A stretch of DNA of 64,000 nucleotides, from the NCBI GenBank assembly GCA_040384565.1, contig JAZKJC010000008.1, positions 18,049 to 82,048 of the forward strand, given 5' to 3'. The position numbers were made by a program, and so were the translations under genes. Below, in pieces: positions 1,414-38,078 of this stretch. How positions within the stretch are numbered: position 1 is the first letter of the stretch; every line of letters starts with the position of its first letter. Below the pieces are notes generated by a model. It had not been told where the DNA came from. It saw only the letters and a program-made list of their open reading frames with translations, and did not search any database. The DNA is from Patescibacteria group bacterium. Lineage in GTDB: Bacteria; Patescibacteriota; Saccharimonadia; Saccharimonadales; JAZKJC01.

Positions 1414-1761
1414 GCTTGGAACCTCTAGTGCTTCATATGCTACCTGACAGACCTGTGTGACTAAGCTCTTTAGCGCTGGTGAGCTCCGTCCAAATACTAG
1501 CGTCGCCCTAATGTAACGTATTCTAGCTTCCGCAAGGGTTTCTGGTAAATCAGAACCTAAATACGCTAATGCATGCTCCTGAAACTTCGGTTCGAATGGA
1601 TCTAAGCCCCCGTCTCCAAGCAGACATGCTGTCGCTAAATCAGCTGTCACATCTTTGGCGGATTGAAGCAAAAATGTACTAGGGTCTAGGCTGCCAAAAT
1701 AAGGTTCCACTAATCCGTCTACAACTGCGTGTCGTGGTGGAACTTCCTGAAACAACGACAT
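1405..1761 (-). CDS. hypothetical protein (118 aa) encoded immediately after atpA
   Basis: ORF start lies 4 nt after the atpA stop, on the same strand. No recognisable domain. It occupies the slot where atpG normally follows atpA directly. Confidence 0.4.
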   Translation of the reverse strand: MSLFQEVPPRHAVVDGLVEPYFGSLDPSTFLLQSAKDVTADLATACLLGDGGLDPFEPKFQEHALAYLGSDLPETLAEARIRYIRATLVFGRSSPALKSLVTQVCQVAYEALEVPSRV

Positions 1762-19055: not shown

Positions 19056-19165
19056 GCACCAGTATCGTATTACGAAATACGTAGTAGTATAACTGTTAGC
19101 GTCATTATCATGTCCTGACCGTCATACCAACTACGTTATACGTTCTACGCAATCATCCCGGGTAG

Positions 19166-19240
19166 CTCAATGGTGGAGCAAGAAGCTGTTAACTTCGAGG
19201 TTGTCGGTTCGAGTCCGACCCCGGGAGCCAGACCAAGCAC
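19166..19240 (+). tRNA. tRNA-Asn (anticodon GUU) with encoded CCA
   Basis: Cloverleaf folded by hand: acceptor TCCCGGG/CCCGGGA, D-arm GCTC-AATGGTG-GAGC, anticodon loop CTGTTAA, T-arm GTCGG-TTCGAGT-CCGAC, discriminator G then CCA. Confidence 0.85.
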
Positions 19241-19253
19241 TAAGAGAGGTAGA

Positions 19254-19296
19254 CCGGGTTCCTAGACCGGTCTTTCTCTATTTTTGAGCATTACCT
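19254..19296 (+). terminator. rho-independent terminator after tRNA-Asn
   Basis: Stem gagaggtagaccgg/ccggtctttctct, followed by attttt. Confidence 0.55.
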
Positions 19297-19317
19297 ATGA
19301 AATTTTCGCCCCCGTTA

Positions 19318-19350
19318 CGGGTTCGAATCCAGCCCCTGTCTTGTCCGAAA
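19318..19350 (+). other. degenerate tRNA T-arm/acceptor-like fragment (GGTTCGAATCCAGCCCC), a possible relic att site
   Basis: It matches the fragment at 22461-22485 in 15 of 17 positions (GGTTCGAAyCCAGyCC). It has no CCA and no 5' half. Confidence 0.4.
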
Positions 19351-19491
19351 ATGTTGGAACGGTCAAATGACACGAACGATTCCAATTTTTCTCTGCAACA
19401 CGGTTCCGAAACCGACCAGCCCACTATATGGCAACCAGGCAGATTGAAAGCCGACCGGGTTCCATGACCAAGCCCTCGAGTGATGACTTAT

Positions 19492-21189: not shown

Positions 21190-21190
21190 G

Positions 21191-21832
21191 TTATTCCAGA
21201 TATAGCTTAGAGAATTTTTTGCCATCAATAACTTGCAGCACCGATCCATCACCCAACGGGGTACCATCTGGCATTGTAGAGAACGTATCTATACACCACA
21301 CTCCATTTTTAACCTCATAACAAGTATCGGTAGGGGTGTGTCCAAATACTTGAGACGTATCCTTGTATATAATACTGCCCCCAGGTCTTGCCCAAATAGG
21401 GCTCATGTCATTCCATAGGCCATCCACATCTTTTAGGCCAGACCACTCATTTGTTATGCCAGCGTGAGAATAAGTAACGCCATCAATTTCGATAATAACA
21501 GGCAGGCCAGCAAGCCACGCTTTCACATTTTTATTTTCTAGGGCATCGATTAAAATTTGTGTCATAGGATTGTAGCCAGATTGCAATGAAGGCGTATTGT
21601 TGACATATATGTAGTCGTGATTACCTGTAACAAGCTCAACCTTGCCTTGGTTTTTAGTCTGCAGATCTTTTAGAGTATTCCAAGTGTTTAGGGTATCTTG
21701 CGGACTAGCGCTAAAGTCATCCGCATAATCACCACAGAAAATAACCTTATCATAAACGTTGTTGAGTTTAGCGACTTTCTCAATAATCCATATTTTTGTG
21801 TGAATGTCGCCCATGGCGAGTACTTTTGCCAT
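21191..21832 (-). CDS. calcineurin-like metallophosphoesterase (lambda-PPase-like)
   Basis: Motifs GDIH, GDYADD and GNHD are present. Confidence 0.75.
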
Positions 21833-21853
21833 AATTTACGTGCAGGCGACTAG

Positions 21854-22201
21854 TTACGCCCGTCCGTGCAATTTTCGTATACGTGCCCGTACCGATTCTT
21901 GATACTGTGTAGGGTTTTGCATTTGGTGATAGGCACGAACAGCGATAACCTCAAAACTATCATCATCTACAAGGTAAACAACTGCGACTTTGTAATTTTT
22001 CATCTGCATCTTACGTACATCTGGGTCATCTTTGAACACGACGTTAGCTCGTGGCAAGTTTTCCAAGTTCGCTACGGTTTCCATAGCTTCATCGAAAAAA
22101 TTCGCTGCCGATTCAGCGTCCACTAGTTCTTCATAAAATGCCATGAGTTCAGCGATATCGTTCTCGGCATCTTCTGTAAGATTGACGCTATACTTTTGCA
22201 C
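21854..22201 (-). CDS. type II toxin, RelE/ParE family
   Basis: 115 aa. The C-terminal YKVAVVYLVDDDSFEVIAVRAYHQ block fits RelE/ParE. It overlaps a small upstream ORF. Confidence 0.65.
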   Translation of the reverse strand: MQKYSVNLTEDAENDIAELMAFYEELVDAESAANFFDEAMETVANLENLPRANVVFKDDPDVRKMQMKNYKVAVVYLVDDDSFEVIAVRAYHQMQNPTQYQESVRARIRKLHGRA

Positions 22202-22376
22202 CAGCCAGCTCCTGATATTTTTTTAGAATATCTTTCTTGGCCTGGCTGAGCGGTATACGGTTTTTAGGATTTTTAGCATGTTTAATGCGTCGCTCCAGCT
22301 CAAGTAGAAACTCTGGGCTGCTTTCATCTACATTAATGACTTTGCTACTATTCATACTTTTATTATACCTTATCAC
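22188..22376 (-). CDS. putative antitoxin partner of the ParE-like toxin
   Basis: 62-aa ORF overlapping the toxin start by 14 nt, the classic toxin-antitoxin arrangement. Confidence 0.5.
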   Translation of the reverse strand: MIRYNKSMNSSKVINVDESSPEFLLELERRIKHAKNPKNRIPLSQAKKDILKKYQELAGAKV

Positions 22377-22452
22377 ACGTAAAAATACGCGTAAAAACTT
22401 GATAAATAACGGATGTGAGCTATCATTAAGCGAGTCTAAAATCGGATGGTAA

Positions 22453-23967
22453 TTAAGTTTGGTTCGAACCCAGTCCGGGGAGCCAATTTCCAGATTTAGC
22501 CATGTCTGTTAGAGCATCAAACGGCTCTAACAGATTAAAAACTAGCTTTTCACCGTCTAGTTTGGCGTTAGGAAGTACTAAATTGAGTAGGTATCGTTTT
22601 TGTTCCAGTTTCGTACTTTCTGCTGCTAACAGTTCTGCGCCTCGGCTTGCGACATCTAAAATGTATGACGCACCGATAACAAAAGCCTTGTCGCCGTCTG
22701 CGTGGTCAGCAATTTGCTGTGCTATGTCTTTTTGCTTTGTTTCAAGGTCTTTAACCATAGATTCAAACAGTTGGTGCCTATGAGCAAACTGTTTTCTGTC
22801 ACTAAACAAGTCTTTAATATCTATGTCTATCTGGTCATGTTCTCTTTGCAGACGTTTTTTATTGGTTAAGTAATGTTTCTGCTCTGAATCGTGGTTACGC
22901 TCAATTTCAGCAACAATTTCGGGCATTACTTGCTCTGGTACTTGAAAGCCAGTAAAGACTTCCATGACTTGGGCTATTAGTTTGTCTTCGTTAACAATCT
23001 TTGCACCATGCTTACCGCCGTACTCTGTACAGCGCATTAAGTTGTACTTATCTTTTTTGCGGTCTGTCGTAATGGTATAGCCACAAGTGTTGCACTTTAA
23101 GTTCTTAAACAGAAACTGCCTACCATACTTGGTACGGTGCAAGGCTCGTTGCTCTTTGACTTCTTGGCACCTGTCCCAAATCCAGGGCTGCACAATAGCA
23201 CCGTAGTGGTGGACGTAGATGTTGCCGTCATAGCGCATTTTGCCGTAATAGAATGGGTTCTTAAGTATTTCTTCCCACTGACCACGAGTAATAGCCTTTT
23301 GGAGCTTGGTATTGCTTACCAGACCGTCATTCTTTAATTCTTTAGCAATCATAGCGAATGACATGCCAGTTGAGCGCAGCTCAAAGCCTTTGGCAATGTG
23401 ACGGCTGCGTACTGGGTCAGGTTTGATATGCCTAATATCATTACCGTTGGCGTCCTTGCCCTTAACATAGTTGATGTAGCCAATAGGGGCTTTGCCTGGC
23501 CATTCACCGTCTGCCAGCTTTTGGTCAAAACGGCGTTTAACGTTGTCCCGTATTGCGCTGGAATAGTAGCCAGCAAGTGCTACGCCAATATCTAGGCGAA
23601 ACAAATCGGCTGCTGGTGAGTTTTTATGAATGTACAGATTATCTGACGGGAAGTGCATTTCAATGCGTCCTTGCCGAAATAGTGCAGTCAAAACTTGCTT
23701 TTCTTCTGACGAGGAGTCACGGCTAAAGCGGTCAATTTTATCAAAAACTACGATTGACAGGTCTGTTGCTTCCATTAAAGGCTGCATAACGCTTTCTCTG
23801 AACTTTTTGCGTGTATCTTTGAACGCTGTTTCGTCAAACTCTACGTAAATGTAATCCTTATCTTCAATCCATTTTTGTTCTTTCGCGTAGTCTTTTAGTT
23901 TTTTTGTTTGGGCGGGAAGTGCTTCCCGTTGTACTGGGTCTGATACCCTTGCTATTAAATAATTCAT
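22453..23967 (-). CDS. large serine recombinase (resolvase/invertase-type catalytic domain, recombinase domain and zinc ribbon)
   Basis: The N-terminus YLIARVSDPVQ carries the catalytic Ser. A recombinase-domain block (PIGYINY...) and CNTCGY...C zinc-ribbon cysteines are also present. Confidence 0.85.
   Translation of the reverse strand: MNYLIARVSDPVQREALPAQTKKLKDYAKEQKWIEDKDYIYVEFDETAFKDTRKKFRESVMQPLMEATDLSIVVFDKIDRFSRDSSSEEKQVLTALFRQGRIEMHFPSDNLYIHKNSPAADLFRLDIGVALAGYYSSAIRDNVKRRFDQKLADGEWPGKAPIGYINYVKGKDANGNDIRHIKPDPVRSRHIAKGFELRSTGMSFAMIAKELKNDGLVSNTKLQKAITRGQWEEILKNPFYYGKMRYDGNIYVHHYGAIVQPWIWDRCQEVKEQRALHRTKYGRQFLFKNLKCNTCGYTITTDRKKDKYNLMRCTEYGGKHGAKIVNEDKLIAQVMEVFTGFQVPEQVMPEIVAEIERNHDSEQKHYLTNKKRLQREHDQIDIDIKDLFSDRKQFAHRHQLFESMVKDLETKQKDIAQQIADHADGDKAFVIGASYILDVASRGAELLAAESTKLEQKRYLLNLVLPNAKLDGEKLVFNLLEPFDALTDMAKSGNWLPGLGSNQT
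22456..22485 (+). other. tRNA 3'-end-like fragment (T-loop, T-stem, acceptor, discriminator, CCA) overlapping the recombinase stop; putative att site
   Basis: The sequence ggttcgaacccagtccggggagcca has no matching 5' tRNA half upstream. On the opposite strand the same nucleotides encode the last 11 codons of the recombinase (GNWLPGLGSNQT). Confidence 0.5.
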
Positions 23968-24047
23968 TTATTGTATCCTTACTATTATTTTATGATTTAC
24001 CTCTGATAATTACTACCAGTAAGGGGGAGATAAACTCCCCCATGTGC

Positions 24048-24500
24048 CTACGCTTCCAACAGTCCAATGAGCTTCTGCTGTTCGTCTGCCGATATAAGTG
24101 GCTCATGTAAGCCCTTATACAGTTCTTCACCGCTACGTATCAAGCCGATATAGTACGGATTGGTAACGATTCGTTTTATGCTAGCCTTACTGCGAATATC
24201 TAATGATTCACCGCTTAAAAGGATAGATAACCGTAACCTAAACTCCTCGGTAGAAATCTTACCGTTGGCTGCTTCCTGCATTACTACACGCATAGCCATA
24301 CCTCTACGGGTTATGCGGAACAATCCGCTAGTTTCTGTAGTTGAGTAGCCAAAAGGTGGACGCCGTAGTGCATATCCAGCTTTGGCTAGATTCTGCATTG
24401 CTGTCTTTGTATTTTCACACGCTGTTAGGCGTTGATATTCAGCTATCACTGACATAAAATCTTTCATTATCTTTTCTGTTGCTTCTTCTTGCTTATTCAT
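24048..24500 (-). pseudogene. truncated serine-recombinase-like ORF (C-terminal and recombinase-domain portion only)
   Basis: 150 aa. The block AGYALRRPPFGYSTTETSGLFRITRRG resembles the recombinase domain of large serine recombinases. No catalytic N-domain is encoded upstream. Confidence 0.4.
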
Positions 24501-24594
24501 TATTTGAACTCCATTTAATTTAAGTTATTGTTGCGCAAGGGCTATGCTGTGTTGCTGTTAGCCTAACCGCTTGCGTCTATGTAAGTGTGATATG

Positions 24595-24780
24595 TTATTT
24601 CTCTGGCTCTACCTCGCTTTGCGTCTTAGTGTTCCGCCAGTCCTGGTGCTGTTTATCCAGCACAATTAGGAACTCTATGTAGCGCACAAGGTTAAACTTA
24701 ATTTCCTTGTATTGCTGTTCGGTTAGCTGCTTGTCATAGAACTTTTCAAACAGCGCCTTAGCGTCGGGTTGCTTACTCAT
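24595..24780 (-). CDS. hypothetical small protein
   Basis: 61-aa ORF overlapping the next gene's start. Confidence 0.3.
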   Translation of the reverse strand: MSKQPDAKALFEKFYDKQLTEQQYKEIKFNLVRYIEFLIVLDKQHQDWRNTKTQSEVEPEK

Positions 24781-25765
24781 TTTCAGCCCCTGTTTCTAAG
24801 CTGTAGTGTATGTTTCTACCTACGCCTTGTGTTTCTTTTACCAAGCCTTCTTCAAGTAGTTCTTCTAGTAGCTCACGCAATTTATGTTCGTTGATTTTTA
24901 CGCCTTGCTGCTTTAAGCTCGCAAGCAACTCTTTTTGAATTGGTTGCTGGTTTTCGCTTAGCTGCGTAAGAATTGTGTCTTTTAGCATTTGACGCTTCTT
25001 ATCTGATATATTCACTTCGCCGTCGTATATGAGCTGAAACGAATCATCATCCGCGCTTATTTCTACTTCAAACTTACCTAGCTCTGGGGCATAGCGGTTT
25101 TTAGTCTGATGTACTACTAAGCTGTCTTTGCGCCGACTTATAGCTACATGGCTGTCTATTGACGCTGGAATGTCTGACGAGCCACGCATTGCGTTAAGCC
25201 CACTATCGGCATTTACGCCAGGCTTACGATTGTGGTGTGTCAGTATCAGCGTAATGTCCTGCGCAGTAAACTTCCTAAGTTGCTTAAACACTGCTGCCAT
25301 TTCGCCAGAACTGTTTTCGTCACTGGCATGTATGCGCACCAGGGAATCTATGATGATTACCTTGATGTCCCGTATTGCACACTCAATGAGTGTTTCGGCG
25401 ACTGTTTCGTTGCTTAAAACGAAACCAGGCTGTGGACTAAAGTAAATTGGTAAATCCGCTAGTGCGCCGAGCATAAACAGACGTTCTTGGACGAGCCGTT
25501 GGCTGTTTTCTTCGTCTATTATCAGCACTCCACTTTGCTTTGTTGCAAACTCACCGAATAGTGGTTCGCCCCTAGCTACGCTTATTGCTGTGTGTAGCGT
25601 TATCCATGTTTTGCATGACGCTGGTGCGCCCGAAAATATCGTTATAGCTGCGTCTGGCACAAGCTTGTCCACGAGCCATTTCTGGGGCGGAAAGTTTTTG
25701 TGCATTAGTTCTTGTATTGTTAGTAATTGGTCCATATTGGAAACCTTTCGTAAGAAGCTATCCAA
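24773..25765 (-). CDS. RecA-family (AAA_25/RepA-like) ATPase with a C-terminal winged-helix domain; mobile-element replication or mobilisation protein
   Basis: Walker A GAPASCKTW and Walker B VIIIDSL. The C-terminus LRELLEELLEEGLV resembles a wHTH. Confidence 0.6.
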   Translation of the reverse strand: MDSFLRKVSNMDQLLTIQELMHKNFPPQKWLVDKLVPDAAITIFSGAPASCKTWITLHTAISVARGEPLFGEFATKQSGVLIIDEENSQRLVQERLFMLGALADLPIYFSPQPGFVLSNETVAETLIECAIRDIKVIIIDSLVRIHASDENSSGEMAAVFKQLRKFTAQDITLILTHHNRKPGVNADSGLNAMRGSSDIPASIDSHVAISRRKDSLVVHQTKNRYAPELGKFEVEISADDDSFQLIYDGEVNISDKKRQMLKDTILTQLSENQQPIQKELLASLKQQGVKINEHKLRELLEELLEEGLVKETQGVGRNIHYSLETGAENE

Positions 25766-25911
25766 CGGAACAGGTTGTTATTGGTGTTGGACGGCTTCTT
25801 TTCCCGTTCCACAATCATCATCTCAACTAATAAAGGAGCTGTGATTCAGCCCCTAAACAACACGGTTTAGTTACGGTTTTCTAATCTGCTATAAACGTAT
25901 GTTTAACGATT

Positions 25912-26802
25912 TTATTCGGTGTTTTTTCGGTAGCTTTTTATAAGCTCAACGTAGACTTTTTGCTGCTGTGGCGCAAGTTCTTTTACTGGCGTAAAGCGCA
26001 CGGTCTTCTTGCTCGTACCTGCAAAGAATATGTCTTTAAGCTCTTTATTAAATCCTTGTAATCTAATTACTTCGGACAGGTCTTTATAACTTTGGCAGCC
26101 GTCAATAAGTTGAATGTCGCCAATGCCAATGTTCTGGTTAGTATGAGTTTGTACGTAGTGCATTAAATTATAAGGACCAGAATCTACACGCAAGTTTTTA
26201 ATAGGAAATAATTCTTTGCCTTTAATACCAATGAGTATTCGCGTGCCGTCTATCTTTACTTCGGCATACATTATTTGCGCAAGCGGGGCGGTATCAGTAC
26301 GGCGCACTGTCGCTCCAAATGCTTGGCAAGTTTCGTCTGTCGGTTTTATTGCTTCAATGATAATAAGACCTTTAATTGCTACAGCCAACAGTGTTTCTAC
26401 AAACTTTTTACTATTACTGGACTGATTACCCTTAATGTCCCTAGCCGTATTTGAAGTACCTAGCTTATTAAGCAATCGTGTTTCGTGCTGCGCATACAAT
26501 GTAATGGAATTGCCAGTGGGTGCAAATATACGGTCAGACTGGAAATACTCAATATAGCTATTAACCATATCCTTAAACCACCTGGTATCGGCAGTCTGTA
26601 CGGCACTGTCTATGCTTTCAATCCTGGCTTCATTTACCAGCTTCTCTAGCACTGCTGCACAGTAGTCTTTATTGTTCGGGTAACCAATAAAGTCGGTCAG
26701 TAAGCCTTGCAGCTTTTCTTGGTCAGCTTGAACATAGCCACTAAGCAAGGCGTAGATATACAGCAAACGGCTGTCCCAAAACTGCGTTATAGGCATTTTC
26801 AT
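25912..26802 (-). CDS. hypothetical protein (296 aa) of the mobile-element module
   Basis: ORF only. Confidence 0.4.
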   Translation of the reverse strand: MKMPITQFWDSRLLYIYALLSGYVQADQEKLQGLLTDFIGYPNNKDYCAAVLEKLVNEARIESIDSAVQTADTRWFKDMVNSYIEYFQSDRIFAPTGNSITLYAQHETRLLNKLGTSNTARDIKGNQSSNSKKFVETLLAVAIKGLIIIEAIKPTDETCQAFGATVRRTDTAPLAQIMYAEVKIDGTRILIGIKGKELFPIKNLRVDSGPYNLMHYVQTHTNQNIGIGDIQLIDGCQSYKDLSEVIRLQGFNKELKDIFFAGTSKKTVRFTPVKELAPQQQKVYVELIKSYRKNTE

Positions 26803-27249
26803 GTCTGCAATTATTGTAAATCATGGGCTAGATTGTGCCGAATCGGTAAGTTTTATGCTTAACCAGTAAAAATGCCATTCTTCACTGATATTGCTCTGTT
26901 CTTGGCAATTTTAGTTATAAATATAAACACGTCTATTTCGGGGATTTGTCTGCTTTAGTGCCAGCAGCAGCATGTAGGTTTCTAATCATTGCGTAAACAG
27001 CGTGTTCTTTTGGGGGCTTTATGTGCGACATGTCTGGTATTCGCCGTTTCATTATCATTTGCAGTTTTAGTTTGCTTTGCTCGTCCATATACTAATTATA
27101 GGACAGTTCAACATAGCCTGTAGAGGACATTTACAGCCGATTTAAGCTGATTTATTGCCTTTAACGACTAACTCTACCAAAAGCCCCGCAAACTCCGCAA
27201 TTATAAGAGTAATTGTTGTATAGTTATATCAGACTGCAAAGGAGTTAAC

Positions 27250-28230
27250 ATGAAAGTAAAAGTATCCGAATTAAAAAACAATGTCTTAGCTGGTGTTTCT
27301 AAACTAGGCTACGAAGACCAAGACGCACAAACTATTGCAGATGTACTCCTTTACGCCCAGCTTCGTGGCAATAATCAAGGTATAACTAAGATTGCTACTG
27401 GTGGTGTGCCTAAGGCTAGCGATGTAAAGCCACTGGAAGTTGTAAAAGAAAACAAGTGTGGTGCTTTGCTATCGGGTGGACATTCAATGGTGGCTACTGC
27501 AAAAGCCGCACAAATGGCAGCAGATTTAGCAGCGCAGCACGGCGTTGGAGTGGTAGCTTCTAACCATACCTTTACTTCATCTGGCGCAATAGGCTATTTT
27601 TCACGACAGATTGCTCAACAAGGTTGTATTGGCTTTGTCTGTGTAGGAAATGGCTCATTTGCTTTTGTTGCCCCAAGTGGTTCAGCAGAGGCTAAACTCG
27701 GTACGAATCCATTCTCTTATGCGTTTCCGTACAATGGTGGCGAAGTGGTCTTTGATAATGCAACTGCTGCTATGGCATTTTTTGGAATAGTTGAAGCCAA
27801 GCTAAAAGGCGAAGCCCTGCCAGAAGGTATTGGGTTTGATAAAAATGGCAGTCCTAGCACAGACGCAGCCGAAGTATTGGACGGCTCAATTTCAACCTTT
27901 GCAGAGCATAAGGGCTTCGGACTTTCTCTATTTGTGCAGTTGCTCGGCAGTGCCTTTGCGCTAGCTGGTATGCCAGGTGCGCATGAAGATGACGGCGCAG
28001 GTACATTCGTAATGGCGATTGACCCTGGATTGCTGGCTGGTAAAGATGAGTATATGAAACGAGCTACAGAACTTGTTAACAGCGTTAAGGCTGCTAAACC
28101 ATTACCAAATAAAAGCGTTTTATTACCTGGTGAACATGGTGACACACTTGCAAAACAAGCAGAAGAAAGTGGCGAAATTGAAATTGCTGACGCTATTTGG
28201 AGCGAACTTACAGCATTTGTGAGTAATTAG
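27250..28230 (+). CDS. Ldh_2 family (malate/L-lactate dehydrogenase family 2) oxidoreductase, the family that includes ketimine (Pip2C/Pyr2C) reductases
   Basis: 326 aa with family-characteristic blocks (HSMVAT, ASNHTF, GTNPFSYAFP, AEHKGFGLS). Confidence 0.75.
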   Translation: MKVKVSELKNNVLAGVSKLGYEDQDAQTIADVLLYAQLRGNNQGITKIATGGVPKASDVKPLEVVKENKCGALLSGGHSMVATAKAAQMAADLAAQHGVGVVASNHTFTSSGAIGYFSRQIAQQGCIGFVCVGNGSFAFVAPSGSAEAKLGTNPFSYAFPYNGGEVVFDNATAAMAFFGIVEAKLKGEALPEGIGFDKNGSPSTDAAEVLDGSISTFAEHKGFGLSLFVQLLGSAFALAGMPGAHEDDGAGTFVMAIDPGLLAGKDEYMKRATELVNSVKAAKPLPNKSVLLPGEHGDTLAKQAEESGEIEIADAIWSELTAFVSN

Positions 28231-28237
28231 GTAGCGT

Positions 28238-29206
28238 ATGAACGATAAACGTATTCTTATACTTGGTGCTGGTGTATCTGGGCTATCTACGGGTATTTTA
28301 CTGCTCAAAGACGGTTACGGCGTTGATATTTGGGCTAAGGATTTACCGCCCAATACTACGTCAAACATAGCTGCTGCTGTTTGGTATCCATACCTTTGCA
28401 ATCCCAAAGATAAGGCAGCCAAGTGGAGCGGTTTTACACTCAAGTATCTACAGCAAAATACGCTTAACGACCCTGATAGCGGTTGCATAGAAAGAACCAT
28501 TACCGAGGTGTTTGACAAAAAGGTAGATGAACCCTGGTGGCAGGAAGCTGTTACTGAATACAGACGACCTGCTCAAGGTGAACTTCCAGCAGGATATGTG
28601 GACGGATACCAAACCAAAGCAATTTTAATGGACACTACCTTTTATATGGACTGGTTACTCAAGCAGTACAAAGAATTAGGTGGCGCCCTTGAGCAGAAGA
28701 CCATAGAGGATATACAAGAAACATTTAATCAGTACGATATTGTCGTTAACTGCACAGGTTTAGGCTCAAAAGAGTTATTTAATGACGATAGAGTATTTCC
28801 CGTTAGAGGACAGGTTGTTTACGTTAAGCCGAATGGCTTTGAGGAAGTAGTGGCAGATGATGACGGACCTAATAATCTTGCCGTTATTATTCCTCGTATT
28901 AACGACATTGTATTAGGTGGAACTGCACAACCGAATAATTGGAGCTTGGAAGTAGACCCTAAAGATACAGAAGACATTTTAAGGAAAGCAAAATTGTTAT
29001 CACCCGCATTTAATGACGTAGAGGTTATCGGACAAAAAGTGGGTTTGCGTCCAGCAAGAGACGAAGTTCGTCTAGAAATAGAAAGGTTTGGTAATAAAGC
29101 TGTCATACATAACTATGGACACGGCGGTGCTGGCTATACACTGTCCTGGGGTTGCGCAAATGATGTTAAAGAGTTGGTAAAGGGACTCGGCTCCCTACAA
29201 GCGTAA
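28238..29206 (+). CDS. D-amino-acid-oxidase-family FAD-dependent oxidoreductase
   Basis: N-terminal Rossmann ILILGAGVSGLSTG, and the C-terminal HNYGHGGAGYTLSWGCA block typical of DAAO. Confidence 0.75.
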   Translation: MNDKRILILGAGVSGLSTGILLLKDGYGVDIWAKDLPPNTTSNIAAAVWYPYLCNPKDKAAKWSGFTLKYLQQNTLNDPDSGCIERTITEVFDKKVDEPWWQEAVTEYRRPAQGELPAGYVDGYQTKAILMDTTFYMDWLLKQYKELGGALEQKTIEDIQETFNQYDIVVNCTGLGSKELFNDDRVFPVRGQVVYVKPNGFEEVVADDDGPNNLAVIIPRINDIVLGGTAQPNNWSLEVDPKDTEDILRKAKLLSPAFNDVEVIGQKVGLRPARDEVRLEIERFGNKAVIHNYGHGGAGYTLSWGCANDVKELVKGLGSLQA

Positions 29207-29391
29207 ACTGTTTTGCATTTTACAAAATATGTGCTATATTATAAAACTATGAAAGCAATTTCAATATCAGCCGTATCATTTTTTACAGTCTCTACTCACG
29301 GAGGCATTGCTAACTTTACCCAATAAATAAAGCAAATCAACAAAACTTAAGCCTCCAACCAGGAGGCTTTTTTAATTCATAAGGAAAGATT

Positions 29392-30402
29392 ATGTCAAAA
29401 CTTAAACCAAGAGAAATTGTAATGGACGCTGTAGGTGAAAGCACTACGGCAGATGTCCTATACCCACAAATAATAGTCAACCACGAAGCAGTACCGTTAG
29501 AAAGTGAGGAACAATTAAAGGCTTGGGCTGTAGGAGCTGCTACGGTCAATGCACTGATTAAGTCTAGCGACAGACGTGCTATAAACGACCAGTTATGGCG
29601 TTACTGTGCTGCACCTGACGACTACCCTTTGGAATTGCGTACTATTTACGGTGGTTCAGAAAATCCACATTCAGTTGACGTATTAGACTGGGCTTTGCCT
29701 TCATTAGCTATCGCAGCAGCAATGCAAAGATACGGAATGAGTCCTAGTGTGTCTGTACTTAGTGCAGATGAAGCTTCAATAAGACTTAACGGTCTTCAAG
29801 CAGAAGCCACCACGCAGCACACCAACGATACCCTACAGTTAGTTGAGCGAGTTGGTAGGCGTTACTATCCTAGCGTAGACCTAGAAGTTGGACGTTTAAC
29901 GTGGGACGAATTAACTGCTGAACCATATTCAGACGATGTTGATTTACTACGTAGTCAACAGCTCGGAGCTTCGGTAGTAAAAATAGTAAGCGGTCTTGAG
30001 GAAATGGTACAAAAGCGTGGCGGTGATATAGATAGTGTCTCGGCATACCTCGGTTTACATAACACTGCATACGCTATTTACACAGGCAAGCCCACCATAA
30101 AGATAGCAGGAGCGTCAGAAGAACGCTTCACTGTAATTCAACGTGAGCTAGCCGCAGCTCACTCTGAAATAACTGGCACTAAAGACATAGACAATAAATC
30201 CTGCTTAGTGGCTGGGGTTATACATGATAGCCCAAGTACGGCTCCGTACTATGTACAGGCAGGAATAAAAGTACCAAGTGTACTAGAAAGAATAAACGGA
30301 ATGGACTACCCGCTAGATATTCTGGCTAAGGAATATGGTCTTGGTCGTGTTGCAAGCAGAATAGCCGCTCTAAATATGAACCCACAAGAGGGCTTAGTAT
30401 GA
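29392..30402 (+). CDS. hypothetical protein (336 aa) in the aaRS-like cluster
   Basis: No recognised motif. The stop overlaps the next start by 4 nt. Confidence 0.5.
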   Translation: MSKLKPREIVMDAVGESTTADVLYPQIIVNHEAVPLESEEQLKAWAVGAATVNALIKSSDRRAINDQLWRYCAAPDDYPLELRTIYGGSENPHSVDVLDWALPSLAIAAAMQRYGMSPSVSVLSADEASIRLNGLQAEATTQHTNDTLQLVERVGRRYYPSVDLEVGRLTWDELTAEPYSDDVDLLRSQQLGASVVKIVSGLEEMVQKRGGDIDSVSAYLGLHNTAYAIYTGKPTIKIAGASEERFTVIQRELAAAHSEITGTKDIDNKSCLVAGVIHDSPSTAPYYVQAGIKVPSVLERINGMDYPLDILAKEYGLGRVASRIAALNMNPQEGLV

Positions 30403-31343
30403 AAATGTATATTGAACCACTAAAGAAAGATGTTCTTGACCGCTACCTTGACGTTCAAGACTTAACCCAAGCTGCTGAACCACATGCAGTTAAGTTGTTG
30501 TACCAAAAAATAGAAGACTATATGCGAGCAGCTCACCCAGACAGCAAAGTTATTGTATATCGGCAAAATCCAGTAGTACCTGTTGAAGATAACTACGATA
30601 AATTGCTAATCGGTAAAGATAACATTAGTCGTTCATCTACTTACACGCACTATGCTGACGACACCCACATTCTACGAACCCATACGTCTGCACATATGCC
30701 CCAAATACTTGAGGACTTAGCTAGACGAGATGACTGGAATGATGTTGTTGTTCTATTACCAGGTTTGGCGTACAGACGAGATGTTACAGACAAAACGCAC
30801 TTAGGTGTACTGCACCAGCTAGATATGTGGCGTGTCATTAAGAATAGTCCTGACAAGCCAGCTATTGTTAAAGACGACCTACTAGATGTAGTTAATGGAG
30901 TGGCAAGTGTTGCTGCACCAGGCTGGAAATTACGAATTGTAGATAACCCACACCCGTATACAAAAGGTGGCATTGAAGTTAATGCTGTAAAAGACGGGCG
31001 AGACATTGAAATACTTGAGTGCGGTTTAACGAGCGACCAATTATTGCAAGACTCTGGCTTAGACCCAAATAAGTATTCTGGTTGGGCGTTGGGTATGGGC
31101 TTAGACCGCTTAGTAATGACACTCAAGGCTATTCCAGATATTCGTTACTTGCGTTCTACTAACCCTGACATTGCTAAACAAATGGTTGATTTGACTCCCT
31201 ACAATGAAGTGTCACACCAGCCGAGTATCAAGCGTGACATGTCCTACAGTGTGCCCAAAGGCTATGTTGAGGAAGATATTAACGAGGACATTCGTAATGC
31301 ACTTGGCAATGATATGAATATATTGGAAAGCGGGAAGTCTTGA
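30399..31343 (+). CDS. mitochondrial-type monomeric phenylalanyl-tRNA-synthetase-like class II catalytic core
   Basis: Motif 2 ILRTHTSAHMPQ and AYRRDVTDKTHLGVLHQLD (compare the mito-PheRS block VYRRDQIDSQHYPIFHQLE). Motif 3 is GWALGMGLDRLVM. The C-terminus DMSYSVPKG matches the start of an FDX-ACB domain. Confidence 0.7.
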   Translation: MKMYIEPLKKDVLDRYLDVQDLTQAAEPHAVKLLYQKIEDYMRAAHPDSKVIVYRQNPVVPVEDNYDKLLIGKDNISRSSTYTHYADDTHILRTHTSAHMPQILEDLARRDDWNDVVVLLPGLAYRRDVTDKTHLGVLHQLDMWRVIKNSPDKPAIVKDDLLDVVNGVASVAAPGWKLRIVDNPHPYTKGGIEVNAVKDGRDIEILECGLTSDQLLQDSGLDPNKYSGWALGMGLDRLVMTLKAIPDIRYLRSTNPDIAKQMVDLTPYNEVSHQPSIKRDMSYSVPKGYVEEDINEDIRNALGNDMNILESGKS

Positions 31344-31531
31344 GTGAAACACTAGCGGAGCAGCTTCCCGACAAAATAAAAGAACGGCTTGGCTGTAAGC
31401 CTAATCAGAAAAATATACTAGTGCGGATTACTCTACGACATCTGGAAAAGACGCTTACAAAAAAGCAAGCCAACGACATCTATGACCATATTTACGGCAA
31501 AATAAATTACGGTACAGGCGGATACCTGTAG
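31340..31531 (+). CDS. FDX-ACB (ferredoxin-fold anticodon-binding) domain fragment continuing the PheRS-like gene in a shifted frame
   Basis: ILVRITLRHLEKTLTKKQANDIYDHI matches the FDX-ACB signature (...RITYRHMERTLSQREV...). It starts at a TTG overlapping the upstream TGA. Confidence 0.55.
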   Translation: MSETLAEQLPDKIKERLGCKPNQKNILVRITLRHLEKTLTKKQANDIYDHIYGKINYGTGGYL

Positions 31532-31543
31532 AAAGGCTATAAT

Positions 31544-32590
31544 ATGAATATGAAATACAGTTTTTATGACGACTACACCGAAGGCGCTCACCCAGAAATC
31601 CTAAAATACATAAGTGAGCATAATTTAGACCAACAACTAACATACGGGCGAGATGAGTATAGTAAGTTGGCTGCTGAAAGAGTAAACAAAGCATTTGGCA
31701 CAAATAATGCAGACGTACATTTCTTGCCCACTGGCACTGTCTGTAATGTCATAGGATTAAAGTCTATGCTTCGTGCTATTGAAGGGGTTATTGCGCCAGC
31801 AAGTGGTCATATAAACACCCATGAAACAGGTGCTTTAGAAGCTCACGGACATAAGATTATTTGGGTTGATACGCCTGACGGCAAGCTCACACCAGCCTTA
31901 ATAGACAAGGCTCTAGCTCTCTACGAAGACGAGCATACAGTAATTCCAAAAGTTGTATATCTGACCCAGGTAACTGAACTCGGCACTGTTTACACTAAAG
32001 AAGAACTCAAAACTGTAATTGACTACTCCAAATCAAAGGGTCTTTACACATTCCTAGACGGCGCACGTTTAGCTATGGCAGTCGCTAGCAAAACAGCTAA
32101 TATGACAATGGAAGATGTCGGCAATCTTGGGCTTGATATGTTCTACATCGGTGGCACTAAAAACGGTGGTATGTACGGCGAAGCGTTGGTTATACAAAAC
32201 GATATATTCAAGAAAGACTTCCGCCATTTTATAAAGCAGCGTGGCGGTATGATGGCTAAAGGTCGTTTTATTGGTCTACAGTTTGCTCGGTTCTTTGACG
32301 AAGATAACTTATGGCTTAACCTGGCTAACCATGCTAATGAAATGGCACAGTTGTTATTTAACGGTCTACAGGAACTAGGAATTGAGTTTGACCTTACGGC
32401 AGACGCGAACCAGGTTTTTCCAATCTTAGACAACAAAGTCTATGAGCAGTTGAGCCAAGAGTATGGCTTTTACCCCTGGAATAAAGTTGGTAATGATAAA
32501 ACTAAAGTACGTTTTGTTTGTTCATGGGCTACGCCTAAAGACCAAGTTGAAGCGTTAATTGCTGACGCAAGAAAGATTACCCAACAATGA
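31544..32590 (+). CDS. threonine aldolase family PLP-dependent enzyme (beta-eliminating lyase superfamily)
   Basis: 348 aa. HFLPTGTVCN aligns with FLPTGTQAN of low-specificity threonine aldolase. The N-terminal YSFYDDYTEGAHPEIL block and a GGTKNG Lys region also fit. Confidence 0.7.
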   Translation: MNMKYSFYDDYTEGAHPEILKYISEHNLDQQLTYGRDEYSKLAAERVNKAFGTNNADVHFLPTGTVCNVIGLKSMLRAIEGVIAPASGHINTHETGALEAHGHKIIWVDTPDGKLTPALIDKALALYEDEHTVIPKVVYLTQVTELGTVYTKEELKTVIDYSKSKGLYTFLDGARLAMAVASKTANMTMEDVGNLGLDMFYIGGTKNGGMYGEALVIQNDIFKKDFRHFIKQRGGMMAKGRFIGLQFARFFDEDNLWLNLANHANEMAQLLFNGLQELGIEFDLTADANQVFPILDNKVYEQLSQEYGFYPWNKVGNDKTKVRFVCSWATPKDQVEALIADARKITQQ

Positions 32591-33120
32591 AGTTTGGCAA
32601 ATTAGACTTCGCAGATGTTAGCCAGCATTCTAACTTAGTAGCTGCGCCGACAGATGAAGCAATTAAACAGCATGACCTTTCAGATGTTCTAGTTGCAGAA
32701 ATTGACGCTGAAGTAGCGGATACAGCAGCTTTCTGTGAAGCTTACGATATTGGAATGGACATATCAGCCAATTGCGTTGTCGTTGAAGCTAAAAGAGCCG
32801 ATAAAACGTGGTATGCAGCTTGTTTAATCTTAGCTACCAATCGGGCTGATATAAACGGCGTTGTAAGACGACACTTAGACGCTCGTAAAATATCTTTTGC
32901 GCCTATGGATACAGCAACCTCGCTGACAAAAATGGAGTACGGCGGTATCACCCCAATCGGTTTACCAGAGGACTGGCAGTTAATTGTTGACGAAGCTATT
33001 ATCCAAAAAGAGCGAGTAATAATCGGTAGCGGTATTCGTGGCTCAAAATTACTTGTAGAAAGCAGCATTTTTTCTAAACTGCCTAATGTTGCTATCAAGG
33101 ATATTGCAAAAACTAGTTAG
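32587..33120 (+). CDS. YbaK/ProX-family aminoacyl-tRNA trans-editing deacylase-like protein
   Basis: 177 aa. The C-terminal block GGITPIGLPEDWQLIVDEAIIQKERVIIGSG matches the YbaK/ProX deacylase domain pattern. Confidence 0.65.
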   Translation: MKFGKLDFADVSQHSNLVAAPTDEAIKQHDLSDVLVAEIDAEVADTAAFCEAYDIGMDISANCVVVEAKRADKTWYAACLILATNRADINGVVRRHLDARKISFAPMDTATSLTKMEYGGITPIGLPEDWQLIVDEAIIQKERVIIGSGIRGSKLLVESSIFSKLPNVAIKDIAKTS

Positions 33121-33164
33121 AACACAGTGTGGCTACCTCTGTAGTTTAAGGGTAGAATTAGAGT

Positions 33165-34943
33165 ATGTACGGGAAGAACATACTGATTATTCCAACGCAC
33201 GAAGATGTGTTTGGCGAACAGGCTAAGACCGAAGCCCAGATTATTGACGGACTGAAAGAGTTTAGCAGCCTGACTATATTGCACCTATGTACAAAGTTAA
33301 TGCTGTTTCTAAACAGTAGTGGGGCGAAAACTCCCGCAAAACAAACGGAACTTGCGCAAGGCTTACTCAATCAAGAAACGAGAGAACGATTACAGGCATT
33401 TATAGAAAATAGTGACGAAAAAGACCCGAACATACTTATCTTTCACCACTGTCCCGTAATGATGATGGTAAAACTCAATCTTGAGCATAATAATACTGAT
33501 GGTCTTGAGATTACTACCGAAGAAACTCGCACGAAGTTTGCTAGTCTTCTAATTTCTTTATGTGACATCTGGCTTTATAACGACAGGCTTAAAGGGGGTG
33601 GCAGCAAGCAGCAACGCAATTTCTTTTTAGAAGGCTTTCGGGCGTACCAAGCACGACAGTTCCTGCAAGAGAATGACGGCGAACCAATGATAAACCTACT
33701 CACAAGAGGTCGCTACATAGTTGATAAAGTGCGAGCAGATACTCGTCTTACTTTTGATGAGTCCTTCAAAACTGCGACTGGAATGGAACTAACTCTGTAT
33801 ATGGACATTCTTTTAATGCTGACTGCTCAATGGACAATCAACGTTGATACGACCAAGCTTGATGACATTTCGGTTAGAAGCACAGAGGAGTACTTTAAGC
33901 ACACTACACTTAGCGCAGAAGACATAAACAAGTTCTTAGATATTGTCGGCTTCAAGATGGACGATTACACCACACTTAATCAAAGATACCTTGAAATGAT
34001 AGGTATGCCTGATGACGACCACTTAGTAAACTTTATAACTTTTATGAAGAAGCCGATACTTCGCTACGACAACAAGTTTTTGTGCCTAAGCCCTAACTTC
34101 CTGCTTCTACAGCTTACCGAAGGACCATATAATATCGTTCGTGAAGCTATTAAGGGTACAAAGCAGGAGCAATTGTTACCTGTAGTTTGGGGCGATACTT
34201 ATGAGCAATATGCACTTGAAAGACTAGCAGCTACGTTTCCCAAATCAACTCATCAGAAACTTAAAGACAAGAATAACTCCGAAACAATAGACGCCTTGAT
34301 TGACCTAGATGATGTTGTTCTGCTAACAGAAATTAAATACCCGCATTGGTCATTCAGGGCAAGAATTACTGGTAAGCGTGAAGATATGCACGGCTATATG
34401 GAAAGAATTGCTCGCTATAAGCCAAAGAAAGAAAAGCTGGGACAGCCAAAGGTTGATAAGAAAAAAGGGCTTGGTCAAATCAAGTACTTCGTTGAAAAAG
34501 TAGCAGACGACACTGCTGTAGCCCCTGTAGATTTAACTAAAAAGCTATTAGTTCCGTTGCTAATTGTTGGCGAGGAATACCCAGTAGACCCTATAAACCG
34601 CCAGCTACTTGAGGGTTATGCTGCTAGCGAAGGCTGCTTGATAACAAAAGATAGTAGAGTGTTGCCATTCGTACTTATTACCAGCGAGGAACTTGAGCTT
34701 ATTGAATCGCTGGTAGAGGGTATAGGGCTTGAGGAAACAAAGAAATTGTTTATGACTTACGTTATGCGCCTACACCCAGACCACCGAGAACCCGAATATC
34801 ATAAACGAGCTACATCATTTAAGAATGAAGTCTTTAACCGAAAGATAAAAGTACCTAATAATATGTTTATGAAAACTCAATCCAAAGCAGCATTTGAACC
34901 AGTCAGAGCATATTTTAAGAATAAATCAGACCTGCCTTTATAA
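33165..34943 (+). CDS. hypothetical protein (592 aa)
   Basis: Long ORF with no recognised motif. Confidence 0.5.
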   Translation: MYGKNILIIPTHEDVFGEQAKTEAQIIDGLKEFSSLTILHLCTKLMLFLNSSGAKTPAKQTELAQGLLNQETRERLQAFIENSDEKDPNILIFHHCPVMMMVKLNLEHNNTDGLEITTEETRTKFASLLISLCDIWLYNDRLKGGGSKQQRNFFLEGFRAYQARQFLQENDGEPMINLLTRGRYIVDKVRADTRLTFDESFKTATGMELTLYMDILLMLTAQWTINVDTTKLDDISVRSTEEYFKHTTLSAEDINKFLDIVGFKMDDYTTLNQRYLEMIGMPDDDHLVNFITFMKKPILRYDNKFLCLSPNFLLLQLTEGPYNIVREAIKGTKQEQLLPVVWGDTYEQYALERLAATFPKSTHQKLKDKNNSETIDALIDLDDVVLLTEIKYPHWSFRARITGKREDMHGYMERIARYKPKKEKLGQPKVDKKKGLGQIKYFVEKVADDTAVAPVDLTKKLLVPLLIVGEEYPVDPINRQLLEGYAASEGCLITKDSRVLPFVLITSEELELIESLVEGIGLEETKKLFMTYVMRLHPDHREPEYHKRATSFKNEVFNRKIKVPNNMFMKTQSKAAFEPVRAYFKNKSDLPL

Positions 34944-35217
34944 ACCGAGAAACAGAATATATCTATATATATTAGTTTTTGCGCTTTCAAACAGTATCCC
35001 ATATCGGTTCTAAGCCAAATGCGTCAGACTCAAAGAAACGCCGAGCATTATCTACTTCACGGGCTAGGCGCACGATAGCGTCATAATACTTAGTGCGGAA
35101 CATGTACGGTAGAGGGAGCCAAATAAGAACACCTTAAAACGCCTCGCTCGTACGGTTAGACTTGACTAATTCAGTATAAGCACTAAGCTTAAGCTAATAG
35201 TTAGTGAGTTTAACTGG

Positions 35218-37386
35218 ATGGTCAAAGCAATGAATGAGCAGCCTGATATACAGCTCCCCGAAAGTTCTAATAGTTTAAAGTCCAAAATCACAAAACGTTT
35301 ACGCATTGATCGATTGCATATTTCTTCTCGGGCAAAAGCTGTGGTAGCAGTAGTGTTATTCGCAGTAGTTGGATCAGTACTACTATTTATCACAAATGCC
35401 TTACCAACGAATGTTATAAATTCAGCCAATTTTTCCGCAGAAGGTGAGTTGAAGCGATACATAATCGAAGATTTTGAAAAGATTAAAGGTGGCAAAGAGG
35501 GGTTTCACCGTGAAGAATTTTTCCTGAAAACAAATACAGGCGACCAAGTAAAATTAAACTTGCCCGAGGAAGCTCAGCAAAAACTTAAAGGGGGCTCCAG
35601 GGTAAGAATAAGTGGTAATAAAACAGGCGATACAGTAACAGTAGAACAAAATTATGCAGCCTCTATACAGGTCCTTGCAGAACCTCCCGCGGGAACAGAC
35701 CTGACAACTACTGACCCTTCTACTACTACGGCCAGCACAAACCGTAAAGTAGCGGTGATATTAATTAATTTTACTGACGATACCAGTCAACCAGTAACAG
35801 TTGATGCGGCTCGGCGGGAAGTTTTCACGGATCCCAACTATTCTGCTAACGCTTTCTACAAAAGAAGTTCTTATAACCTACTGGGTCTGACTGGGCATAC
35901 TAATGTCGACGGTGACATATTTGGGTACTACACCATAGGCGCCACAAAGTCCGGGAACTGCGACTACACTTTATGGGGGAGGCTTGCCGATCAAGCTGCC
36001 CAGTCTGCAGGCGCTGATTTGTCAGTATATAATCATATTATCTATGCTTTTCCTTCAGCGAATTGTGGCTTTGGGGGCATAGCAGATCTACCTGGTAGTC
36101 ATGTTTGGCTCAATGGTAGTATCTCAGGCACTCCACTTAGCCATGAGCTAGGACACAACCTCGGTCTGTACCATGCTAATGGCTTTGCCTGCAAGGATAC
36201 GTATGGTTTTACAGTATCAATAAGTGATAGGTGCAGCAGCCTTGAATACTATGACATGTTTGACACCATGGGCTCGGGATTTAACTTAGATGATTTTAAT
36301 GGGTATTACAAAAGACGCCTCAACTGGTTGGTTCCTTCAAATACGCAGACCGTAACTACAAGCGGTGATTATACGATCAATAGCCTCGAATCTACTGGTT
36401 CGGGAGTGAACGAGATAAGAATTCCGCGCTACGTCACTGCTGCAGGAATTACTCAGTATCTTCACCTTGAATATCGGCAGCGTAATGGTGAAGGTGTCCT
36501 TGTGCGACAAGTTGATGAAACCTTTGGAAGATCATATCTATTTGATACAACCGACGAAACCGCATTCTTTTGGCAGTTCAAGGACGCGCCACTTGCTATT
36601 GGCAGGACATTAACAGATGCTACTTACAATATCACCATAACACCTATATCTTCGACGCCGTCAAGCGTCAAAATACGCATTACTATTACTGGAACCACCA
36701 TCACAAAAGGCAAACCTAGCAAAAGAACAACAACCACGCCCGCCCCCCCAGAAAATGCCCAGTATGTATCTACTACTGCGCCTTTGGCGGTAAAGCCAGG
36801 TGGTCAGGTATTTAGCGCATCAATCACAATGAAGAATACCGGCACAACTACCTGGACTGCGGCGGATTATCAGCTCGGTGCAATTGTCATACCCTCCAAC
36901 AAATGGGGACAAACCCGGTTGAGTCTAAGTCGAGATGTAGCACCGGGAGCGACGGCCACATTCACCGGCACGTTCACGTCACCTGAGGCTATGGAATTTG
37001 ACAGAGCGCAATCTTTCAGTTGGCGCATGCTGAAGAACTCTACAAATACTTGGTTTGGCGGTGCCTTGACCAAGGCGATCACTGTCTCGAACGATCTGAC
37101 GGCGCCAGCACAACCTATGGACCTAAAGACCACTGCCGTAACTTCGAGCAGCGTGTCGCTGTCTTGGACTGCCTCTTCCACGCCAGGTGTGGCAGGCTAT
37201 CGTGTGTATAGAGTAAATAGTGGCGGTGCATTATATCTTGCAGGCTACACGACGTATACAACAGTATTCACCGATGCGATCGGTTTGAGCCCGTCTACGC
37301 CATACACATACTATATCGTGGCAATTAACTACAACGGACTAGAGTCTCTACAGTCTACGTCTGTAAACGTTACTACTCTAAAATAA
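35218..37386 (+). CDS. secreted zinc metalloprotease (metzincin-type HEXXHXXGXXH) with a C-terminal FN3-like domain
   Basis: HELGHNLGLYH zinc site, an N-terminal TM/signal and a C-terminal LSWTASSTPGVAGYRVYR FN3-like block. Confidence 0.7.
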   Translation: MVKAMNEQPDIQLPESSNSLKSKITKRLRIDRLHISSRAKAVVAVVLFAVVGSVLLFITNALPTNVINSANFSAEGELKRYIIEDFEKIKGGKEGFHREEFFLKTNTGDQVKLNLPEEAQQKLKGGSRVRISGNKTGDTVTVEQNYAASIQVLAEPPAGTDLTTTDPSTTTASTNRKVAVILINFTDDTSQPVTVDAARREVFTDPNYSANAFYKRSSYNLLGLTGHTNVDGDIFGYYTIGATKSGNCDYTLWGRLADQAAQSAGADLSVYNHIIYAFPSANCGFGGIADLPGSHVWLNGSISGTPLSHELGHNLGLYHANGFACKDTYGFTVSISDRCSSLEYYDMFDTMGSGFNLDDFNGYYKRRLNWLVPSNTQTVTTSGDYTINSLESTGSGVNEIRIPRYVTAAGITQYLHLEYRQRNGEGVLVRQVDETFGRSYLFDTTDETAFFWQFKDAPLAIGRTLTDATYNITITPISSTPSSVKIRITITGTTITKGKPSKRTTTTPAPPENAQYVSTTAPLAVKPGGQVFSASITMKNTGTTTWTAADYQLGAIVIPSNKWGQTRLSLSRDVAPGATATFTGTFTSPEAMEFDRAQSFSWRMLKNSTNTWFGGALTKAITVSNDLTAPAQPMDLKTTAVTSSSVSLSWTASSTPGVAGYRVYRVNSGGALYLAGYTTYTTVFTDAIGLSPSTPYTYYIVAINYNGLESLQSTSVNVTTLK

Positions 37387-37428
37387 TTTTCGGTTGAAGT
37401 AGCCTAGTTCCTAAATAGCAAATTCTTG

Positions 37429-37468
37429 CTTTATTGCGGTTATAACCTCCTCTATCGTGGTGAGCCAA
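37429..37468. repeat. copy 1 of a ~45-bp intergenic repeat family (TTTATWGCGGTTATAACYTCCTCTATYGTKGTGAGCCA)
   Basis: Aligns at about 85% with the copies at 38107 and 40082. It contains the palindromic core GGTTATAACC. Confidence 0.8.
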
Positions 37469-37682
37469 ATACAACGCTCAAAAAAGAAAAGACGCCTCTG
37501 GGTCAGATTCAGCCCCGTATGCGTCTTTTACAGTTGTAATTATAGCTGTTGGCTATTTTATTGTCTATATTTGGTCTGTTGACAAGGTTGTCACTAAAAA
37601 TGAAGACAAAAAAAAGAAAAGACACGGTTGATACAGTACAGTAACGTGCGCGTCTTATCCACTTAAAATACTATCAAAACAC

Positions 37683-38078
37683 CTATAATATGTCAATAAT
37701 TTTTTGCGTTTTGGTTATGATTTTAAGGTGTTTTATTTTGTGAGGACCAGCCGATAGGTAGTAGTTTATTCGAGCTATTGCCCTGCTTTGATGCAGTTTG
37801 GCGCGACGCAGATCGAGTACAACATTGCGTGATTGTCTGTGAGCGGCACGCAAATTGTTATCGATAGTTTTCTTGCCATTACCTCTTGGACTTTTGATTT
37901 CCCATTTTATACCGTTGACATCTATATCTGGTGTTTTCTTTGTCTCTGGACGCAAAAATATAACGTCTGCCTTGAAGTGGTATGCCAAAATGAGTGCCGC
38001 CGACAGCTCATGCTCTTTTGGAACATCTACTAAATCAGTTTGAACAATAACAGTGTACTTCGCCATAATCTGTACCAC
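37683..38078 (-). CDS. hypothetical protein with a PD-(D/E)xK-like nuclease motif
   Basis: PDIDVNGIKWEIKS gives the spacing PD...E.K. Confidence 0.35.
   Translation of the reverse strand: MVQIMAKYTVIVQTDLVDVPKEHELSAALILAYHFKADVIFLRPETKKTPDIDVNGIKWEIKSPRGNGKKTIDNNLRAAHRQSRNVVLDLRRAKLHQSRAIARINYYLSAGPHKIKHLKIITKTQKIIDIL

Follow-up and report, generated by a model that had tools for sequence, protein, structure and literature searches.

Does a PheRS-like gene that stops within its C-terminal domain, with the remainder of that domain encoded in a second frame, reflect an error in the sequence, a gene lost to mutation, or two frames that are joined by design? The locus that raises this question lies in a Saccharimonadales contig, of which a 64-kb stretch was analysed as a whole (hereafter, the window). 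The original prediction had described a PheRS-like catalytic core separated by a frameshift from its FDX-ACB anticodon-binding domain, and had put forward a sequencing or assembly indel, an inactivating mutation and programmed frameshifting as three open options. This was the right set of options; however, they did not prove equally likely, and a recent inactivating mutation is favoured. The features of the locus are as follows:

30399 to 31531, forward strand: putative disrupted SrmL gene (PheS-related ligase), 377 aa once one base is put back
30399 to 31343, forward strand: ORF1, 314 aa, GenBank MES2971275.1 / V4702_03080, "hypothetical protein"
31340 to 31531, forward strand: ORF2, 63 aa, TTG start, -1 (= +2) frame relative to ORF1, GenBank MES2971276.1 / V4702_03085
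31313 to 31343, forward strand: overlap zone of 31 nt in which both frames are open
31332 to 31334 (~31333), forward strand: 1-nt deletion, placed by codon alignments, removing position 2 or 3 of the Val312 codon

The two reading frames and the position of the break

ORF1 ends in NDMNILESGKS, followed by a TGA at 31341-31343, and encodes the whole class II core and, within the FDX-ACB domain, β1, α1 and the opening three residues of β2, before the out-of-frame residues GKS. ORF2 encodes the remainder of β2, β3 and α2 and terminates in GTGGYL, the normal C-terminus of the SrmL family; in the ancestral gene its TTG encoded Leu315, and this codon now overlaps with the stop of ORF1 (TTGA). The ORF2 frame is open from 31313, directly after a TGA at 31310-31312, and because both frames are open only within 31313-31343, the change of frame, whether by mutation or by the ribosome, is confined to that interval. 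In Pfam searches, ORF1 matched PF01409 (E 1.2e-27, model positions 17-245 of 246) and ORF2 alone matched the FDX-ACB family PF03147 (E 1.2e-4, model positions 50-85 of 94). When the two were joined, the FDX-ACB match ran unbroken through residues 272-369 (model positions 1-85 of 94, E 9.2e-7), with PF01409 covering residues 29-261 of the repaired protein, and the resemblance lies far beyond what chance would give. Restoring the base yields a 1134-nt gene with the normal family C-terminus, and its 377 aa equal the modal length of the homologues. The coordinates given in the original prediction for the 314-aa ORF and its stop were borne out, as were the continuation of the FDX-ACB domain in the +2 frame from the TTG at 31340, here by the PF03147 match of ORF2, and the proposal that both ORFs are one gene of ~377 aa.

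Homologs of the joined sequence were recovered by protein search, with 673 hits in total. Of the best 120, almost every one was an unsplit protein with both domains, 371-386 aa in length (mostly 376-377) and 66-91% identical to the query; among the best 120, the sole truncated close entry (P0014, labeled at its source as the NCBI MAG "Patescibacteria group bacterium") was the window's own 314-aa product. The intact homologs retrieved, ~130 in number, were all single ORFs of 371-417 aa, again mostly 376-377, and the repaired protein was 82-92% identical to 377-aa single-ORF homologs. The junction was spanned in one alignment by 131 of the 134 proteins compared, the other three being the window's two pieces and one contig-end fragment. 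The pattern ILES-V-EVLSET crossed the junction in 22 of 22 aligned homologs, the junction position was Val in 125 of 126, and 11 related genomic loci matched in a single frame. The comparison with orthologs, which had been suggested as a check, thus found the junction to be in frame in all intact homologs.

Codon alignments with ten related loci (L001, L002, L004-L009, L015, and L019) placed the loss of a single base within the codon for Val312. The relatives read AGC GTA/GTG/GTT GAA GTN/ATA (Ser-Val-Glu-Val/Ile) in these 10 loci, and the window reads ATA TTG GAA AGC G-G GAA GTC TTG AGT at the lesion; the deletion allele has the form AGCGGGAAG and the in-frame allele the form AGCGTGGAAG (or another GTN codon). 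An intact allele from the same strain was not found among the cluster members of the ten closest representatives, which were at most 91.8% identical, and two pattern scans of metagenome contigs from JGI, with 0 or 1 additional base permitted at the lesion, gave no match.

Family assignment and likeness to PheRS

The repaired protein scored 415.8 bits (cutoff 300, model positions 2-347 of 349) against NCBIfam NF051887, an equivalog model named "PheS-related mystery ligase SrmL" with no assigned function, and it has the architecture of that model, a tRNA-synt_2d core followed by FDX-ACB in ~377 aa. ORF1 alone scored 338.3 bits over model positions 2-288 of 349; positions 289-347 were reached only after the base was restored, and the gene as it stands gives no full-length match in a single frame. 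In length and domain order the repaired protein is like the 376-377-aa homologs from Candidatus Saccharibacteria MAGs; the window gene differs by the 1-nt deletion, which leaves the last 59 positions out of frame. Scores fell below the curated cutoffs both for mitochondrial PheS (TIGR00469 pheS_mito, 174.6 against 258.35) and for bacterial PheS (TIGR00468, 76.8 against 237.45). By curated cutoffs, the window gene is accordingly classed as a disrupted member of SrmL and as no bona fide PheRS; a PheRS-like core and FDX-ACB domain in one broken gene, as originally predicted, was upheld, but not its identity as PheRS proper. Candidatus Saccharibacteria MAGs are the source of nearly all the relatives. 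In the literature searched, no paper was found on the SrmL gene (the name "SrmL" had unrelated uses and the term "PheS-related" was absent), nor was a link found between Saccharibacteria and monomeric PheRS or pheS/pheT.

The closest structural counterpart was human mitochondrial PheRS, which was the best PDB match by sequence (E 3e-27, identity ~24%) and, through 3cmq, the best match by fold (TM 0.68 over ~400 columns, full length); the human FARS2 structures are PDB 3cmq, 3tup, and 5mgh. According to the literature, no other monomeric synthetase than mitochondrial PheRS (FARS2) is known to have a class II catalytic module, and it binds the anticodon of tRNA-Phe through its C-terminal domain (PMC3275996). 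SrmL has the same one-chain arrangement of a class II module and a C-terminal FDX-ACB domain (PMC3275996), and the motifs HTS, YRRD..H...HQL, and GWA.G.GL.RL are common to both; however, SrmL is bacterial (Patescibacteria/Saccharibacteria), and the phenyl-ring stacking motif, FPF in mitochondrial PheRS, is HPY, and invariant, in the SrmL family. The FPF pair corresponds to Phe258 and Phe260 of the Thermus thermophilus PheRS α subunit, and in the cytosolic PheRS of eukaryotes, which charges Phe nonetheless, the two positions are occupied by Asn and Tyr (PMC3275996); because of this, the HPY motif leaves the substrate specificity of SrmL undecided. With bacterial PheS, SrmL shares the PF01409 core, and its FDX-ACB domain shares its fold with PheT domain B8 (TIGR00472 match, positions 699-788; PMC3275996), but it differs from bacterial PheRS in having neither the N-terminal coiled coil nor a β subunit and in carrying the anticodon-binding domain fused to the catalytic chain.

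In an AlphaFold model of the protein (mean pLDDT 73), the C-terminal domain was predicted to be of βαββα type, with β1 at residues 277-286, α1 at 291-308, β2 at 309-319, β3 at 337-346, and α2 at 355-369, and with residue 312 within the central strand β2. Because the break sits inside β2, neither ORF1 nor ORF2 is predicted to hold a complete FDX-ACB domain. On this model, the truncated product would retain the catalytic core and lack a foldable FDX-ACB, a loss that, by analogy with mitochondrial PheRS, should abolish tRNA binding.

Origin and age of the deletion

We favor, with a probability of about 0.6, a recent and genuine inactivating deletion in an accessory SrmL gene, which would make the locus a nascent pseudogene and no regulatory device. 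The loss of one base from the Val312 codon (GTN to G-G, ~31333) of a 377-aa SrmL gene would move the frame by -1 within the central β2 strand of the FDX-ACB domain, and translation would end after three wrong residues, giving a product with the catalytic core and only the beginning of the RNA-binding domain. The deletion would thereby most likely inactivate or cripple an accessory gene in a variable, recombinase-associated region. Among the options first listed, the inactivating mutation is the best reading of a deletion that was confirmed in a second assembly and that is followed by an intact, selected frame.

The sequence past the break indicates how long ago the base was lost. In the 65 codons downstream, there were no stops and no further indels, and every family-invariant residue was kept. 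The dN/dS of this segment was 0.08-0.09 in comparisons with L015 and L001, both at dS above 1, versus 0.05 for the same segment between two intact genes and 0.03-0.04 for the N-terminal part. The frame was therefore selected for over essentially the whole divergence, and the deletion is very recent.

The chief alternative, which we regard as unlikely, is a sequencing or consensus artefact, in which the gene is intact in the organism and either a read-level error or a minor or defective variant chosen at a strain bubble entered the assembly. A lone lesion in an otherwise perfectly conserved gene, with no downstream decay and the invariant residues kept, has the look of an error, the SrmL family is strongly conserved (dN/dS 0.03-0.05), the source genome is a MAG, and an intact downstream frame suits an artefact as well as it suits a very recent mutation. 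A Logan contig (SRR26324625_1713829), assembled independently from raw run SRR26324625 and reached by look-ups of the 63-aa and 348-aa products, bears directly on this point; an exact look-up of the 314-aa product gave no match. The 8299 bp retrieved (of 8363 bp) were an exact substring of the window at 29292-37590, deletion included, with a gene series of 336/314/63/348/177/592/722 aa identical to that of the window. Since the Logan assembly reproduces the deletion, an assembly or polishing error specific to the MAG is excluded, and the deletion is, at the least, the allele that dominates the reads. Base-for-base agreement between two independent assemblers extends over 8.3 kb; however, both assemblies were probably built on the same reads, and an error that recurs systematically in the reads, or a consensus that follows the majority variant, could have passed into both. 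Long exact k-mer contigs imply accurate reads, in which the same deletion seldom recurs at a given site, and in the relatives the deletion site, a GTN codon followed by GAA, is not a homopolymer.

The rest of the window also argues against an error of this kind. Approximately 70 window ORFs were scanned with Pfam and gave essentially full-length matches (the ATP synthase operon, glycosyltransferases, SmpB, a histidine kinase, and others), and no second frameshifted gene was found in the 64 kb; because these ORFs include no further split gene, the assembly does not seem to be indel-prone. An assembly error, part of the first option originally listed, is disfavored by the shared deletion and by the freedom of the window from other indel damage, and, as far as two assemblies of one read set can show, the organism's DNA carries the deletion.

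If the deletion is real, the gene might be split and still functional, either because the 314-aa product works alone or because reinitiation at TGA-TTG supplies a 63-aa piece that completes the FDX-ACB domain in trans; we consider this improbable. The stop and start share the letters TTGA, the purine-rich 22 nt before them pair moderately with an anti-Shine-Dalgarno sequence (-7.5 kcal/mol, a value in the range spanned by genuine window genes), the whole PF01409 core is kept in ORF1, and both ORFs are annotated in GenBank. Against this, the TTG of ORF2 is merely the ancestral Leu315 codon, the 35 other gene starts checked in the window comprise 34 ATG and 1 GTG, and the cut is predicted to fall inside a β-strand and not at a domain boundary. 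None of the ~130 homologs is split at the junction, so related genomes showed no conserved pair of ORFs in which the FDX-ACB ORF has its own start, the pattern named in the original prediction as the mark of a genuine split gene, and there was no sign of adaptation to the split state. More doubtful still is the specific proposal of a split aaRS-like enzyme at the stage of fission, maintained by UUGA reinitiation, or of a core that alone performs a possibly tRNA-independent function of SrmL.

A regulatory reading, in which programmed -1 ribosomal frameshifting or slippage during transcription would fix how much full-length enzyme is made relative to the truncated form, has in its favor the -1 relation of ORF1 and ORF2 and the 31-nt zone open in both frames, but it is by far the least credible reading and seems close to refuted: no slippery X_XXY_YYZ heptamer occurs in 31313-31343 (the gene has a single such heptamer, CCCAAAT at 31064, which precedes the zone by 250 nt), there is no run of at least four identical bases from 31261 to 31372, RNA folding was the same as that of shuffles (z -1.08 for 31336-31440 and z -0.36 for 31300-31400) with no stable stimulatory structure found 5-9 nt downstream of the site, and the arrangement is conserved in no homolog, all intact ones being in frame. 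The heptamer and downstream structure for which the original prediction had proposed a search were both absent, and its regulatory option found no support in a homopolymer run, a significant fold, or a relative with the same arrangement. The overlapping 0/-1 ORFs encoding one protein recall dnaX and the IS3-family transposases; however, unlike these, the window site has no heptamer, stimulatory structure, or conserved arrangement.

An alternative code with UGA read as Gly was also considered and rejected: frame-0 readthrough of the TGA meets a TAG three codons on, and code 11 yields full-length domains across the window.

Gene neighborhood and dispensability

The genes that flank SrmL differed in every related locus, and no neighbor was common to the window and its relatives. 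The 336-aa ORF upstream of SrmL bears no relation to the 247-aa protein encoded upstream in L001 and L015, and no Pfam, NCBIfam, or PADLOC model matched it; PADLOC also returned no defense-system hits for SrmL or its immediate neighbors. The sole recurrent neighbor was a serine recombinase, which lies within 5 kb of SrmL in L001, L006, L007, and L015; that of the window (22453-23967) is 6.4 kb from SrmL, adjoins a ParE toxin gene, a recombinase fragment, and an AAA_25 protein, and lies downstream of a tRNA-Asn (19156-19230), although no att-type repeat of the tRNA-Asn 3′ end was found. SrmL thus looks like accessory, dispensable mobile cargo in a variable, recombinase-associated region, and a real knockout is plausible for that reason.

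As a counterpoint, the strong purifying selection on the family (dN/dS 0.03-0.05) shows that SrmL is normally useful to its hosts. Neither canonical pheS nor canonical pheT was found in the 64-kb window; should SrmL be the sole PheRS, the cell could not survive a real knockout, and an error would become likelier. A natural knockout in one lineage, in turn, hints that cells can do without SrmL, as would be expected of an accessory gene but not of the housekeeping PheRS.

The value of the frameshift lies mainly in annotation, since it is an ordinary event in a curated family and adds nothing toward new recoding biology. MES2971275.1 and MES2971276.1, both listed in GenBank as hypothetical proteins, represent one SrmL gene broken by a single-base deletion, for which the proper annotation is a frameshifted pseudogene, or a corrected sequence should the reads disagree. 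Of greater interest is the intact SrmL family, a strongly conserved, one-chain, mitochondrial-PheRS-like protein that is widespread in Saccharibacteria and has no known function.

Elsewhere in the window, the only other possible gene fragment was a recombinase remnant at 24048-24500.

The SrmL family and a degraded copy

SrmL (PheS-related mystery ligase) shares the build of mitochondrial PheRS and, like it, is made as one chain; however, the phenylalanine-stacking motif, FPF in the mitochondrial enzyme, is invariantly HPY in the SrmL family, and more distant members carry HMLE instead of the motif-2 HQLD/E. Judged by its sequences, the intact family is strongly conserved, with 66-92% identity and a dN/dS of 0.03-0.05 (the window copy at 30399-31531 and those of related loci L001, L004-L010, L015, and L019). 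Its hosts are chiefly Candidatus Saccharibacteria MAGs, and no function has been published, as far as our literature search showed. At 1121-2200 of locus L012, a contig of 2.5 kb assigned to a Flavobacteriales bin, lies a heavily degraded copy: numerous in-frame stops interrupt it, and its middle segments are garbled. It is a pseudogene of long standing or else a product of noisy sequence; the window copy, in contrast, carries one clean lesion.

Gene neighborhood of SrmL in the window

Within the window, SrmL lies inside a run of genes, all on the same strand (27250-33120), made up of:

Ldh_2-family dehydrogenase
DAO-type FAD oxidoreductase
336-aa unknown ORF, whose stop overlaps the start of SrmL (ATGA)
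SrmL
threonine-aldolase-like PLP enzyme
YbaK-like aminoacyl-tRNA deacylase

The run is one of genes connected with amino-acid chemistry or with tRNA editing, and none of SrmL's neighbors is kept beside it elsewhere among the related loci compared. A 592-aa ORF at 33165-34943 had no Pfam or PADLOC matches and matched the NCBIfam antiphage GapS1 family weakly, at 60 bits, below the cutoff of 320.

Serine recombinases and possible mobility

Serine recombinase genes recur near SrmL:

L001, 3357-4853 and 6445-8022
L006, 3068-4969
L007, 1-1600
L015, 1-1582

Because these genes lie only a few kb from SrmL in neighborhoods that are otherwise unrelated, their recurrence suggests that SrmL is cargo carried by integrative elements. 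The window encodes a serine recombinase as well, in the region 3′ of a tRNA-Asn gene:

19156-19230, tRNA-Asn
591-aa SEC-C-motif protein
metallophosphatase
ParE toxin
22453-23967, serine recombinase, 504 aa
24048-24500, recombinase fragment, 150 aa
AAA_25 protein

This region (19156-27000) looks like an integrated mobile element; a search for an att-type repeat of the tRNA-Asn end found none.

Other genes in the window

In the F-type ATP synthase operon, atpA (1765-3312) and atpG (1-865), which are usually neighbors, flank two extra ORFs at 920-1761 (minus strand), one coiled-coil-like (152 aa) and the other without matches (118 aa). A CdiA C-terminal toxin domain was found in a 131-aa ORF at 37683-38078, and an 1830-aa surface protein with ∼17 repeats of the SpaA-type prealbumin fold is encoded at 56982-62474.
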